Numbered from the stretch's first letter, positions 26,464 through 50,083 are shown. The stretch: DNA of 64,000 nucleotides from Candidatus Phycocordibacter aenigmaticus (GCA_045401115.1 CP174359.1:355247-419246); one strand, 5' to 3'. Notes: a model not told the origin generated them from the sequence alone. A program made the numbers and translations.

Positions 26464-26550
26464 CGGAGGAGTGGCTGAGTGGTCGAAGGCGCTCGCTTGG
26501 AAAGCGAGTGTGGGTTTACACCCACCGCAGGTTCGAATCCTGTCTCCTCC
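26464..26550 (+). tRNA. tRNA-Ser (anticodon GGA), class II with long variable arm
   Basis: GGAGGAG acceptor stem, anticodon loop TTGGAAA, T-arm GCAGG-TTCGAAT-CCTGT; CCA not encoded. Confidence 0.85.
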
Positions 26551-26736
26551 GCAGATGTCTAAGAAAATGCGAAAGCGTTTGATTAGAAAAAGCTGCGCAA
26601 GGAGAGAGAATTCGAACGGGAAGGGGGTCGGGGAAACGGGAGTTTCCCCGTGGCGGAATGAGGCGAAGCCGGACATAAAACCGAGGGGTTTTATGAGCGC
26701 AGCGAAGCGAGCAGTGAGATTCCTGTCTCCTCCGCA
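26551..26736 (+). mobile_element. tRNA-flanking structured element A, ending in a direct repeat of the tRNA-Ser 3' end (att-like)
   Basis: 18/19-nt copy of the tRNA 3' end at 26716-26736; GNRA hairpin 26563-26578; hairpins 26629-26650 and 26674-26695. Confidence 0.5.
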
Positions 26737-26963
26737 CTAAACAAAAGGATTGGCTTTGTGCTAGTGCTTTTGTTTTATATAAGGAGCGGCAGGATGAGAA
26801 GCAAGATGCTGGGAGCGTAAATTTTCTTGAGTGAGACGAGGTGGACAACTCTTGCTTGTGAACTCCTTTCTGACGGTGTATTTTAAAGACGGCTTGAACG
26901 GATTTCTAACCTTGTGCTACTCCTCGTGGATCGGTGTTGGTGGAGCAATAAAGCCGCTTTATT

Positions 26964-35884: not shown

Positions 35885-36151
35885 GATGTCCGCGCTAGAA
35901 CGCTTCGCTATCTCACTGCTCCCCAGCACCAGTTTGAGACAAAATGAAAATGGTTCGAAAATCTTTGTATGGAAATGAAACGTATCATACCTACTCACGT
36001 CCGTTCTCAAACTGGAGCTGGGTGTGCTCATAGAACCCTCGGTTCTATGTCGGCCAAAGGCCTAACTCCTCCACGGGAAAACAACGTGTTTTCCCGACCC
36101 TTTTCCAGTTCGATTCCTAGCAAGGGCACGGAATATGCTTCGCATTTTTAT
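35885..36151 (-). mobile_element. tRNA-Arg-flanking structured element E (related to element A), with an inverted copy of the tRNA 3' end
   Basis: 21-bp inverted repeat 36108-36129 / 36154-36175 involving the tRNA 3' end; hairpins 36029-36049 and 36074-36096 homologous to those of element A. Confidence 0.45.
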
Positions 36152-37284: not shown

Positions 37285-37358
37285 GCCGAGGTAGCTCAGG
37301 TGGTTAGAGCACTGGTCTGAAGAACCAGGTGTCGGCGGTTCGAGTCCGCCCCTCGGCA
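37285..37358 (+). tRNA. tRNA-Phe (anticodon GAA)
   Basis: GCCGAGGTAGCTCAGGTGGTTAGAGC..., anticodon loop CTGAAGA, GGTTCGAGTCCGCC T-arm. Confidence 0.9.
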
Positions 37359-37561
37359 CAAAAACAATGAAGCCCGATACGAGAGTATCGGGCGATTTGT
37401 TTTGTAGCTACGAGGGCGGACTCGAAAGACGGAGCCGTGGGTCCCCATTGTGCTGAGTTTCAGGCACAATGGGGCGGCGAGTCCGGGCAGGAGGTTGTTA
37501 TGAGTTTTTCTATCGAGAGATAGGTAAAAACGAATTACGAACCTGACGCCGAGTCCGCCCC
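37359..37561 (+). mobile_element. tRNA-Phe-flanking structured element B, ending in a 12-nt repeat of the tRNA T-loop/T-stem (CGAGTCCGCCCC)
   Basis: GNRA hairpin 37373-37392; hairpin 37443-37476; shared 16-mer CGAGTCCGGGCAGGAG 37478-37493; junction GACGCCGAGTCC 37545-37556. Confidence 0.45.
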
Positions 37562-42830: not shown

Positions 42831-44003
42831 TTATTCAGCGAGTGATTGCGAACCTCGCGCGTTCAGTTCTTTTTCAGTATCTGCTTTGCCGGCGCTGTGG
42901 CGCAAGTATGCGGCGATACCTATCATAATTGCATTATCTCCGGTTAGTCCGCTTTCAGGATAATGAAGCGTTATGTTTGGATGGTGAGAAACCAGTTCCT
43001 CTAATCCTTCACGGATATGTGTATTTGCCGCTACGCCGCCTCCGACCACGAGTGTTTTGGGATGTTGTATTTCAATGGCGCGTTTTGTTTTGTGCACCAA
43101 CACATCACGCGCCGCGTCTTCAAATTCGCGAGCAATATTTTCTTTATCTTCTTGTGAAAGTTCTCCCATGTCACGCACTAAGTAGAGTACAGCCGTTTTC
43201 AGACCTGAAAACGATACATCGCAACTTTCTTCGTGTAACATCGGGCGGGGAAGTGTAATAGGGTTTTCACCACCGCGCTCGCGTGCTTTTGTAGCATATG
43301 CAGATATTTCCGGCCCACCAGGATACTCAAGACCTAAGAGGCGCGCCACTTTATCAAACGCTTCACCTACGGCGTCATCGCGCGTTTGACCCACTAAATT
43401 ATATGCAAACCACTCTTTCATGGTAATAAGTTCAGTGTGTCCACCGGAAATAAGTAGTGCCAGTAATGGCAGTGCAGTGTCAGTAATATGATAGGTGTTT
43501 GGGGTGCGGAGGTCTTTTTTGAGTAGAGCAGAGGTAATGTGTCCTTCCATATGGTCAATGCCGGTCAGGGGAATATCCCAGGCAGCGCTGAGTGCTTGCG
43601 CAAAGGTAACACCGGTCCACAGTGCGGGTTCCAACCCAGGTCCGTTGGTTACAGCAATAAGGTCAATATCAGGTTTCTCGGTCGTTTCAAGGAAATCATT
43701 CACCGCTTTTTTAAATGATTCGTCACGGAGTGGTTCAAGCACATCGTCCGTTATTGTGTTGCAAGAGTCTTGTTTAAGTAGGCCTGCCTGGCGCAATGTT
43801 TCTGTGGTTAGGGGCACCAAATTTTGTTGGTGTTCACGTTTCGCAAGGGAAGGGTACACGCCGCCATACTCAGAGTGCTTAGATGCCTGAGAGTACAAGG
43901 AATCACCCAGAAGGGTATATTGGGATGATTCAATATTACCTGTCGCCTCAAGTACGGTTATTGCGGTCTCGTCACAACTGGTTTCAATGGCTAAAATTTT
44001 CAT
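42831..44003 (-). CDS. tsaD: tRNA N6-adenosine threonylcarbamoyltransferase TsaD (Kae1/Qri7 family)
   Basis: MKILAIETSCDETAI N-terminus, HMEGH metal-binding motif. Confidence 0.9.
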   Translation of the reverse strand: MKILAIETSCDETAITVLEATGNIESSQYTLLGDSLYSQASKHSEYGGVYPSLAKREHQQNLVPLTTETLRQAGLLKQDSCNTITDDVLEPLRDESFKKAVNDFLETTEKPDIDLIAVTNGPGLEPALWTGVTFAQALSAAWDIPLTGIDHMEGHITSALLKKDLRTPNTYHITDTALPLLALLISGGHTELITMKEWFAYNLVGQTRDDAVGEAFDKVARLLGLEYPGGPEISAYATKARERGGENPITLPRPMLHEESCDVSFSGLKTAVLYLVRDMGELSQEDKENIAREFEDAARDVLVHKTKRAIEIQHPKTLVVGGGVAANTHIREGLEELVSHHPNITLHYPESGLTGDNAIMIGIAAYLRHSAGKADTEKELNARGSQSLAE

Positions 44004-44010
44004 ATACAGA

Positions 44011-44213
44011 TGTTGTGGGCGATACAGGACTCGGCGTCAGGTTCCTAAGCTCATTCATCGCTCCGCTCTTCATTCACTAAGGACCTCCTGCCCGGCCTCG
44101 CCGACAAGCACTCGCTCTCGCTCGTCTTGTATACCGGCTCCGGCTTTCTCGTCCTGTGTCGCTGCTACAAACCTAAGTTGCATCATGCATGCGCATACTG
44201 CTCTAAGGTTTTG
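44011..44213 (-). mobile_element. tRNA-Val-flanking structured element D, ending (44011-44030) in a 20/21-nt direct repeat of the tRNA 3' end
   Basis: TGTGGGCGATACAGGACTCG present at 44011-44030 and 44212-44231; GACGCCGAGTCC junction and CCGGGCAGGAG motif on the minus strand. Confidence 0.5.
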
Positions 44214-44287
44214 TGGGCGATACAGGACTCGAACCTGTGACCTCGTCAACGTCAATGACGCGCTCTAGCCAACTGAGCTAATCGCCC
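44214..44287 (-). tRNA. tRNA-Val (anticodon GAC)
   Basis: Reverse complement gives GGGCGATTAGCTCAGTTGGCTAGAGC, anticodon loop TTGACGT, GGTTCGAGTCCTGT T-arm. Confidence 0.9.
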
Positions 44288-49726: not shown

Positions 49727-49803
49727 AAAAGTGACCAAAAGGACCTTTAAAATATAGCATTTTGAGCAGAAAATGCTAGGATTTCCTGAGTGAGTTTCTC
49801 ATT

Positions 49804-49887
49804 GGAGGAGTGCCCGGAATTGGTAACGGACCGCTCTCGAAAAGCGGCGCGGGAAACCGCTTGTGGGTTCGAGTCCCATCTCCTCCG
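49804..49887 (+). tRNA. tRNA-Ser (anticodon CGA), class II
   Basis: GGAGGAG acceptor, 3-bp D stem, anticodon loop CTCGAAA, variable arm, GTGGG-TTCGAGT-CCCAT T-arm. Confidence 0.8.
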
Positions 49888-50083
49888 CAAATGTCTAAGA
49901 AGACGCGAGAGCGTCTGATTAGCAACAATTGCGAGAAGGAGATGAGGCGAGAAAGACGGAGGCCGCGAAGCCGTGACGATAGTACACGTGGCCGAGTCCG
50001 GGCAGGAGCCACTTAGTATTTTGTGAGCAAAGCGAGACAAAATAGTTAGTGAGTTGACGCCGAGTCCCATCTCCTCCGCAAAT
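49888..50083 (+). mobile_element. tRNA-Ser(CGA)-flanking structured element C, ending in a 23-nt direct repeat of the tRNA 3' end
   Basis: CGAGTCCCATCTCCTCCGCAAAT at 49871-49893 and 50061-50083; GNRA hairpin 49901-49916; 16-mer CGAGTCCGGGCAGGAG 49993-50008. Confidence 0.5.

Follow-up and report, generated by a model that had tools for sequence, protein, structure and literature searches.

A small folded element bounded by copies of a tRNA 3' end between tRNA-Val and tsaD, and its relatives behind other tRNA genes of CPR/Patescibacteria

In the stretch of 64,000 nucleotides analysed here (the window) a non-coding insert of 180 bases, element D, lies between the gene for tRNA-Val(gac) and the essential gene tsaD, and the locus raises the question of what this insert is and whether tsaD is controlled by it. 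An earlier note on this DNA had described D as one member of a repeated family, as bounded by a 20-nt direct repeat of the tRNA 3' end and as the promoter and 5' UTR region of tsaD. The repeat is real: the window contains two copies of the 20-mer TGTGGGCGATACAGGACTCG and no more (44014–44033 and 44212–44231), and 0 of 100 dinucleotide shuffles gave a match to it even when 3 mismatches were allowed. Only the first coordinate had been placed 3 nt too low (at 44011), and the distance from the distal copy to the ATG of tsaD, given as 7 nt, is actually 10 nt (9 nt for the full-length repeat). Full identity extends over 21 nt (plus strand 44013–44033 and 44211–44231; the minus strand reads CGAGTCCTGTATCGCCCACAA), and the proximal copy is the 3' end of the tRNA, from C56 of the T loop to the discriminator plus 2–3 nt. 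The boundaries of D and its place between tRNA-Val and tsaD are thus confirmed, and any upstream transcript that reaches tsaD must therefore cross D. The three family motifs reported for the minus strand were found at 44027–44038, 44084–44095 and 44136–44148. Beyond what had been noted before are an internal antisense copy of the tRNA end, a conserved fold and a second core type at two other tRNAs of the window. The product of tsaD aligns at its N-terminus with homologues from Met1 on, and is 100% identical to a protein on a 721-kb Patescibacteria MAG contig.

On the minus strand the parts follow one another as tRNA-Val with its 3' segment X1, the hairpin P0, GUA, anti-X, GAAA, P2, CG, P4, P3, GACGC-C and X2, the second copy of the segment (Table 1). 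GACGC-C abuts X2 directly, and P4 consists of 3 bp that enclose a 3x3 loop and the P3 hairpin. Anti-X pairs with the 3' strands of tRNA-Val at 12 of 15 positions, plus a tandem G-A. Pairing of anti-X with X2 (helix P1) closes a three-way junction and gives the minimum-energy fold (−72.4 kcal/mol, z = −3.6); the alternative pairing of anti-X with X1 yields an extended arm that has P0 as its cap (−36.4 kcal/mol, z = −5.8). The 180 nt of D have no coding capacity. The scan of P0 of D called nothing that looks like a terminator; in several other copies of the family P0 resembles an intrinsic, even bidirectional, terminator. A palindromic CUUAG/CUUAG with a conserved U-U mismatch is present in P3 of all type-1 copies and in D also in P0 (window sites e.g. 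44039–44086 and 44169–44210, minus strand).

Table 1. Positions in the window of the parts of element D, of the adjoining genes and of the other elements with the same layout
Feature	Position	Strand	Remarks
tRNA-Val(gac), intact	44213/4-44287	-	ARAGORN; Rfam tRNA model 68.5 bits
X1, proximal 21-nt repeat	44211..44231	-	C56 to discriminator plus 2-3 nt
P0 hairpin	44169..44210	-	AAACCUUAG...CUUAGGUUU; part of inserted DNA; absent at the L027 empty site
anti-X, 18 nt	44148..44165	-	GCAGCGACACAGGACGAG; antisense to tRNA-Val T-stem 3' and acceptor 3' strands
Type-1 core, three-way junction	44034..44147	-	covariance model R1 142.9 bits; covariation
Core, J and P2	hairpin 44095-44144	-	J = GAAA; P2 = GCC/GGC, GGA/GA loop
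Core after P2	P3 hairpin 44039-44086	-	CG; P4 GGC/GCC; AGG/GAC loop; P3; GACGC(C)
X2, distal 21-nt repeat	44013..44033	-	first C also closes P4
tsaD	42831..44003	-	PF00814; ATG 44003-44001, 9-10 nt past X2
Type-1 sister behind tRNA-Phe(gaa) (37285-37359)	37360..37561	+	X2 only 12 nt (37550-37561)
Type-1 sister behind tRNA-Ser(cga) (49804-49888)	49889..50083	+	X2 23 nt (50061-50083)
Type-2 element behind tRNA-Ser(gga)	26553..26736	+	different core; X2 26718-26736
Type-2 element behind tRNA-Arg(cct)	35885..36151	-	diverged X2 at 35885-35900

That D belongs to a repeated family, as had been claimed, is borne out within the window, where three type-1 copies are found (behind tRNA-Phe, tRNA-Val and tRNA-Ser(cga)), and far beyond it. 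A search of GTDB genomes and metagenomes with a pattern built from two conserved motifs yielded 11 true copies in the GTDB genomes and 16 more in metagenomes, all in CPR or CPR-like contexts; the GTDB hosts belong to Paceibacterota, Parcubacteria, Vogelbacteria, Spechtbacterales, Kaiserbacteria and Saccharibacteria. The remaining matches to the pattern were discarded as chance hits within genes of GC-rich bacteria. With the covariance model R1, 40 copies were found in 28 sequences, only in CPR/Patescibacteria assemblies, D having the top score (142.9 bits). Recurrence in independent assemblies had been set as a test of the repeat, and homologous elements of the same layout are indeed present in about 28 of them; D is therefore no assembly artefact. 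Most of the R1 copies (27 of 40) start 20–47 nt past a tRNA on the same strand, and 16 anticodons are represented; 6 are later units of tandem arrays, and for 7 no tRNA was detected nearby. The layout is constant: tRNA 3' segment X1, hairpin P0, anti-X, conserved three-way junction, X2. The unit size of about 180–200 nt is uniform in some 30 copies behind 16 different tRNAs, and the same core variants are found with many different tRNA targets. In type-1 copies X1 and X2 are identical over 19–23 nt, always from C56; the X2 copies that run from C56 to the discriminator continue 1–3 nt beyond it, and anti-X suits the upstream tRNA of its own copy in each case. This holds even where X2 is foreign or truncated (the tRNA-Phe copy of the window, L006, L026, L030 and L036). 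In L026, L030 and the tRNA-Arg copy of L036, X2 stems from another tRNA than anti-X, so that P1 cannot form. The tRNA-Ser(cga) and tRNA-Phe genes carry the element in several related genomes.

In Rfam 15, the whole window at the gathering threshold matched only the tRNA family, six times, and when the five element regions were all scanned at a permissive E-value, the best score was 18 bits for YrlA, against a threshold of 69. Neither the search of viral contigs nor blastn against phages and plasmids found a match to the element. When the ORFs within 3.5 kb of all copies were clustered, no recurrent neighbour protein emerged, only housekeeping synteny and ORFs overlapping the elements; a motif scan of the window ORFs found no reverse transcriptase (RT) or serine-recombinase motif, by eye the window ORFs look like housekeeping genes, and those next to the elements are housekeeping genes or overlap elements. 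The genes downstream of the copies are heterogeneous (co-oriented genes, convergent genes, tRNAs, terminators). It should be noted that mechanically called ORFs of 93–110 aa cross elements and tRNAs in the window (43987–44268, plus strand; 49747–50070 and 26516–26848, both minus strand), and that similar spurious ORFs overlapping elements cluster across loci and may be mis-annotated as CPR proteins.

The core was examined for covariation in a set of 36 distinct sequences, with pairing partners slid by 1–3 columns and with 500 shuffles as controls. In the proposed fold 93.7% of the cells are standard pairs (31–40% in the slid controls), both sides have changed in 22 of the 25 pairs, and 0 of the 500 shuffles attained any of the observed covariation measures. 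An independent run of RNAalifold also gave the consensus fold. Even the nearly invariant P4 (GGC/GCC) becomes GUC/GAC in a variant subgroup. In P1 the T-stem part is paired in 88% of the cells and covaries, the acceptor part is variable, and pairing often runs through the discriminator and past it. Preference for the tRNA-sense strand is seen in the G-U pairs (28, versus 10 A-C), in the stability of the fold (the sense strand is the more stable in 30 of the 36 copies, p = 8e-6) and in the C-GNA-G triloops, of which the sense strand has 22 as hairpin caps and the antisense strand 2. Judged by these comparisons, the core is demonstrably an evolutionarily conserved fold on the tRNA-sense strand. 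The hairpin caps are mostly C-GNA-G triloops (CGAAG, CGUAG, CGGAG) and GNRA loops.

Several identities of this fold were considered and rejected. The strands of the junction do not fit the consensuses of the hammerhead, hairpin, twister and hatchet ribozymes or of an RNase P-like core, and the Rfam models are silent. Without P2 the junction reads GAGAAAG...CCGGGC (44094–44100 and 44144–44150, minus strand), resembling the GAGGAAAGUCCGGGC of CR-I of RNase P RNA. The 9-mer AGUCCGGGC, common to both, is regarded as a coincidence, since its U covaries with its P2a partner; the Rfam RNase P models did not match the junction, and the likeness as a whole is probably fortuitous. Nor can anti-X convincingly be taken for a copy of the tRNA's own 5' strands, as in a degenerate tRNA paralogue, its identity to them beyond what complementarity demands being unconvincing.

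The layout is not tied to one core. Five of the six tRNAs of the window carry an element of this layout (tRNA-Glu does not), and four further core types with the same layout were recognized (1b, 2, 3 and 4), of which types 1b, 3 and 4 are present at loci outside the window. The type-2 core, GGGUCGGG-hairpin-CCCGUGG.GGA...GCCGACAUA.AACCGAGGGGUU.UAUGAGC, is unrelated to that of type 1. Behind tRNA-Arg(cct) anti-X (36108–36129) complements the tRNA 3' end over 22 nt without a mismatch, and X1, P0 and anti-X together make an arm with a perfect stem of 23 bp (−44.3 kcal/mol, z = −9.5); this type-2 copy also has a large extra hairpin. X2 always starts within the T loop, in type 1 at C56, in types 2 and 3 at G57 and in type 4 at G59. 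By eye, the P0 hairpin of the type-1 element behind tRNA-Ser(cga) shares about 88% identity with that of the type-2 element behind tRNA-Ser(gga), which suggests that arms are exchanged as modules or were duplicated together with the tRNA; with such like hairpins on unrelated cores, arms and cores look like exchangeable modules. The two share the pattern AUGUCUAAGAA.A.GCGA.AGCGU.UGAUUAG (49889–49925 and 26553–26592, both plus strand) despite their unrelated cores.

Several loci show signs of turnover. Behind tRNA-Ser in L004 there is a tandem or nested array whose distal units are decaying, and which looks like the result of nested or successive insertions. In this region (L004 1140–2021, minus strand) tRNA-Glu carries a type-1b element and tRNA-Ser(cga), next in order, a three-unit array; P1 of the middle unit is not tRNA-derived past CGAGUCC, and the last unit is a truncated remnant that ends in another copy of a tRNA-Ser 3' end. 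Two different core types stand in tandem behind tRNA-Gln in L017, and a duplicated unit behind tRNA-Phe in L036. Occupancy is patchy: tRNA-Glu is filled in L004 and empty in the window and in L027, and tRNA-Val is filled only in the window. The foreign X2 segments of L026, L030 and the tRNA-Arg copy of L036 are expected from recombination between copies. At tRNA-Phe of L027, X2 keeps an older acceptor sequence, anti-X pairs with the evolved X1 via G-U, and the core is intact; such a fossil-like X2 speaks for a long vertical residence, and perhaps for a function in the host, more than for current mobility. In L017 (3640–4022, plus strand) and L029 (1105–1454, minus strand) an extra hairpin splits anti-X near the boundary between its acceptor-like and T-stem-like parts, which is where the other arms leave a real tRNA. 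In L013 (5173–6570, minus strand) about 1.17 kb separate tRNA-Met from a type-1 core with X2; the insert holds a decayed serine-recombinase gene (MKYILYARKSTEEDDRQVLSIEAQ...) on the opposite strand, abutting the tRNA, and a 104-aa ORF; it represents a nested island or else hints that the element has a larger relative.

With respect to tsaD, the earlier note's reading was that D had become its promoter and 5' UTR control region, and it is true that D lies on the same strand 9–10 nt before the ATG, with no room for another promoter in between. However, a promoter scan found no sigma-70-like site on the minus strand of D, and in the upstream regions of tsaD compared among relatives the element is lacking. 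The arrangement of tRNA-Val(gac) before tsaD is itself kept in relatives. In L027 (TsaD 51% identical) the tRNA 3' end meets the ATG with no spacer (...UAUCGCCCACA, then CCCAC-ATG-AAA), and the junction is without P0, anti-X, core or second X; processing of the tRNA 3' end there would create an almost leaderless tsaD mRNA. The tRNA-Val(gac) of this locus (L027 8596–8712, minus strand) has A53:U61 in its T stem, where G53:C61 is a near-universal pair, and the loop UUCGAAU. In L043 and L044 (TsaD 64%) a spacer of 80 nt with a terminator-like hairpin lies between tRNA-Val and tsaD, and an R1 search of this region gave no match. In L043 (2920–3000, plus strand) the sequence next to the terminator-like hairpin, GUGUGCGGGGCG, agrees in part with the antisense strand of the tRNA 3' end and may be a relic of a lost element. 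In L045 (TsaD 64%) a gene for a HAD hydrolase stands between the two, and L042, whose TsaD is the closest relative (90% identity), has a HAD hydrolase gene in divergent orientation 30 nt from tsaD. Since this upstream region is quite different, D is no conserved control region of tsaD. Other copies of the family moreover precede heterogeneous genes, convergent genes or tRNAs. Taken with the fused or nearly fused tRNA in relatives, this makes control of tsaD by D very improbable.

The empty junction of L027 argues that D is a lineage-specific insertion into a tRNA-Val-tsaD unit and no ancestral tsaD promoter. As far as the compared junctions allow us to judge, some 198 bp (P0, anti-X, core and one X) are shown to be specific to the lineage of the window and absent from the junction of its relatives; the tRNA was kept intact because the insert is bounded by a 21-nt duplication that covers the tRNA from its T loop to shortly beyond its 3' end. 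Gain of D is the simpler reading. The comparison of filled and empty sites reaches beyond strain level, to a distant genome (L027, TsaD 51%), and at such a distance precise loss in other lineages, through recombination of one repeat with the other, is no less possible than gain. Since the tRNA adjoins tsaD directly in L027, a tRNA-Val-tsaD co-transcript that is now interrupted by D is likeliest; tsaD is thus probably read from the tRNA-Val promoter, with D as an inserted intercistronic spacer. A promoter-like candidate match, TTGCAT-17-TACACT, was found by eye upstream of tRNA-Val. One may speculate that, if P1 mimics a tRNA arm, 3' processing at X2 could release a tsaD mRNA whose leader would measure about 10 nt.

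The explanation that we favour, and consider moderately probable, is that D is a trans-mobilised, non-coding insertion element of CPR/Patescibacteria that is specific for tRNA 3' ends and whose functional part is the folded sense strand. The unit would have entered a matching tRNA gene within its segment X, through recombination or through insertion at a staggered cut. The layout could be the product of a single crossover within X between the tRNA gene and a closed element with one X, and a staggered-cut insertion that duplicates X would fit it equally well. In the closed form every arm would be capped, X:anti-X by P0, and P2 and P4/P3 by their loops. Since nothing is encoded in cis, we infer an enzyme that acts in trans. 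The inserted element would be read through from the tRNA promoter, and in the read-through transcript pairing of anti-X with X2 would close the junction by a helix that resembles the acceptor/T-arm stack; at the tsaD locus the element would be a passenger inside the tRNA-Val-tsaD transcription unit. Candidates for the role of the conserved junction are recognition by the mobilising factor, RNA processing and a host function, and anti-X could be the structural partner of X2, could make X double-stranded in a single-stranded form or could guide the element to its target. Against this explanation, the searches yielded no mobilising enzyme, a P0 that works as terminator would block read-through transcription of the core, P1 cannot form in the three copies with a foreign X2 (L026, L030 and the tRNA-Arg copy of L036), and the explanation gives no account of how anti-X is made to fit each new tRNA. 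A bolder version, which we regard as rather unlikely, is that of a protein-less, target-matched mobile nucleic acid: a closed molecule of about 200 nt, RNA or single-stranded DNA, whose junction would be catalytic or the handle for a host enzyme, and whose exchangeable arm of X, P0 and anti-X would program homing to one tRNA gene. The shared arm design would then be a convergence of several unrelated cores.

The same structures could also belong to a resident, non-mobile ncRNA that is useful to the host and co-transcribed with its tRNA, which we hold to be possible, if on balance doubtful. P1 would then mimic the acceptor/T-arm, RNase P and RNase Z or exonucleases would excise the RNA and free the downstream mRNA, and the junction would bind a protein or ligand. 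This would agree with the invariable tRNA-sense orientation and the folding bias of that strand, with the strong conservation of the core across CPR classes, with its recurrence behind tRNA-Ser(cga) and tRNA-Phe in several related genomes, and with the start of tsaD at the tRNA 3' end in L027, where tRNA 3' processing would set the 5' end of the mRNA. The anti-X that still pairs via G-U with the evolved tRNA-Phe end of L027 suggests long residence. Further in favour of a resident RNA are the extra hairpins of L017 and L029, inserted into anti-X close to where its acceptor and T-stem parts meet. A resident RNA is difficult to reconcile, however, with the patchy occupancy (tRNA-Val filled only in the window, tRNA-Glu only in L004), with tandem or nested arrays and decayed copies, with several unrelated cores in one layout, with a P1 that, unlike a tRNA, often pairs beyond the discriminator, with X2 segments from another tRNA and with the terminator-like P0.

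Two further proposals share mobility with the explanation that we favour and differ in the agent; both seem to us improbable. In one, the free form would be a satellite, a circle of single-stranded DNA of about 200 nt, in which the X:anti-X arm folds as a mimic of the duplex 3' end of a tRNA gene; a recombinase of the host or of a helper would exchange one strand with the chromosome and replication would fix the insert, in the manner of CTX-phi/IMEX elements or integron attC sites. The closed topology, which leaves every arm capped, would suit this, as would the strand-specific fold and the need for an antisense copy of the target though nothing is encoded. C-GNA-G triloops and GCGAAAGC-type loops are classic, very stable DNA mini-hairpins, and such loops dominate here (22 sense, 2 antisense); yet the GNRA loops, tandem G-A and G-U pairs suit RNA equally. 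The searches of viral contigs, phages and plasmids gave no match, no single-stranded form, helper phage or recombinase was seen, and no precedent is known for a replicon or satellite of 200 nt. In the other proposal, of like improbability, the transcript of the element would be directed to the tRNA gene, either with anti-X as a programmable guide for a trans-encoded recombinase or nuclease (comparable to a bridge RNA, seekRNA or omega RNA) or as an RNA that is itself catalytic, and X2 would be the target-site duplication. Anti-X does complement the intact tRNA end in every copy, even with a foreign or truncated X2, perfectly over 20–23 nt in some copies; it lies directly 5' of a conserved scaffold of about 115–130 nt, and the same core variants serve many tRNA targets. 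But known guide RNAs lie within elements that encode their enzyme, and here no candidate protein is found in cis or recurring nearby; anti-X is in a helix with the element's own end and not in an internal loop as in bridge RNAs, the duplication measures 19–23 nt as against the 2-nt core of IS110, none of the ribozyme or guide families of Rfam gives a match, and the proposal offers no account of how a guide would be re-programmed. Finally, D might be the scar of a classical integrase island or prophage, with attL and attR at the tRNA gene and nearly everything in between deleted. Its duplication from the T loop to the tRNA 3' end is as at the T-loop sublocation of tRNA genes, reportedly used by tyrosine integrases, and the 1.17 kb with the decayed serine-recombinase gene in L013 could be read in the same sense. 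Scars would not be expected to keep a uniform size of about 180–200 nt in some 30 copies, a conserved and covarying core or an anti-X that matches its own tRNA in every copy; besides L013 no integrase remnants are seen, and the use of 16 different tRNA genes would be unexpected for one family of integrases. The likelihood of this origin is close to negligible.

A search of the literature for such a family found no description, consistent with its absence from Rfam 15, and the folded tRNA-3'-end elements of these ultra-small bacteria are apparently undescribed. If the family is as it appears, most tRNA genes in many CPR bacteria carry a small structured passenger, and a lineage whose non-coding repertoire is almost unknown gains a well-supported family of structured nucleic acids with at least four sister architectures. 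Insertion beside or into essential genes would be tolerated because the tRNA end is rebuilt. At tsaD the reading of expression changes, the gene probably being read from the tRNA-Val promoter across the element. For the annotation of CPR genomes it should be considered that spurious ORFs overlap the elements and that duplicated tRNA ends can be mistaken for island boundaries. The target-complementary arm raises the possibility that base pairing picks the insertion site without a protein encoded by the element, and the protein-less reading, if true, would mean a new class of guide-bearing mobile elements and a natural programmable insertion system of minimal size.

How D and its relatives stand to known systems can be seen from those nearest in plan. 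The structures that resemble tRNA (the tmRNA domain, viral TLS, mascRNA, YrlA) may share with it a helix of acceptor-type and T-stem-type 3' strand that ends at the discriminator, and a large insertion that replaces other parts of the tRNA. In contrast to these, the D family has no T loop or D arm, its pairing often goes past the discriminator, and it is multi-copy, each copy mimicking a different tRNA; an ARAGORN scan detected no tmRNA in the window. MITE/REP-type repeats are also short, non-coding, multi-copy, structured and non-autonomous. However, the D family lacks conserved terminal inverted repeats, keeps strictly to site and orientation behind tRNA genes and has copy-specific ends that follow the local tRNA, the duplication being 19–23 nt of tRNA sequence. 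A cis-regulatory leader or riboswitch would be marked by a functionally related class of downstream genes, and the neighbours found are heterogeneous.

Closer in size is the bridge RNA or seekRNA of IS110/IS1111, likewise a structured ncRNA of about 150–200 nt at the end of an element with a stretch complementary to the target. The D family differs in having no DEDD (RuvC-like) or serine recombinase and no Tnp-domain ORF in the element or nearby, a continuous anti-X of 12–23 nt that pairs with its own end instead of split guides in two internal loops, and a duplication of 19–23 nt instead of a 2-nt core; there is no sequence or model match. With IMEX (CTX-phi type) and attC sites it shares that no recombinase of its own is needed (IMEX), that an inverted repeat can fold within a single strand to a duplex recombination site and that the arms keep structure and not sequence. 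Its target, however, is a tRNA gene and not dif or attI, no R/L box or dif-like 28-mer is apparent, its units are far smaller than any phage or cassette, and a single-stranded stage is here conjectural. By eye, types 1b, 2 and 3 have GAAC at the end of anti-X, facing the GTTC of the T loop, and the full RYYYAAC...GTTRRRY is not apparent.

The nearest relatives in pattern are the islands and prophages of T-loop tyrosine integrases and the CIMEs. They too insert into tRNA genes with regeneration of an intact tRNA, have a direct repeat from the T loop to the tRNA 3' end and accumulate in tandem at one tRNA, and D indeed shows the flanking tRNA-3' repeat with the tRNA intact. Neither an integrase gene or remnant nor a full-length relative accompanies it, the only larger insert being that of L013 with its decayed serine recombinase. 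The D family also differs from them by its units of about 180–200 nt without integrase or evident arm-type sites, by its covarying three-way junction and antisense target copy, and by its use of at least 16 different tRNAs. What is known is thus the duplication pattern of tRNA-targeting integrative elements; what is new is the minute size, the junction, the target-antisense arm and the many tRNAs.
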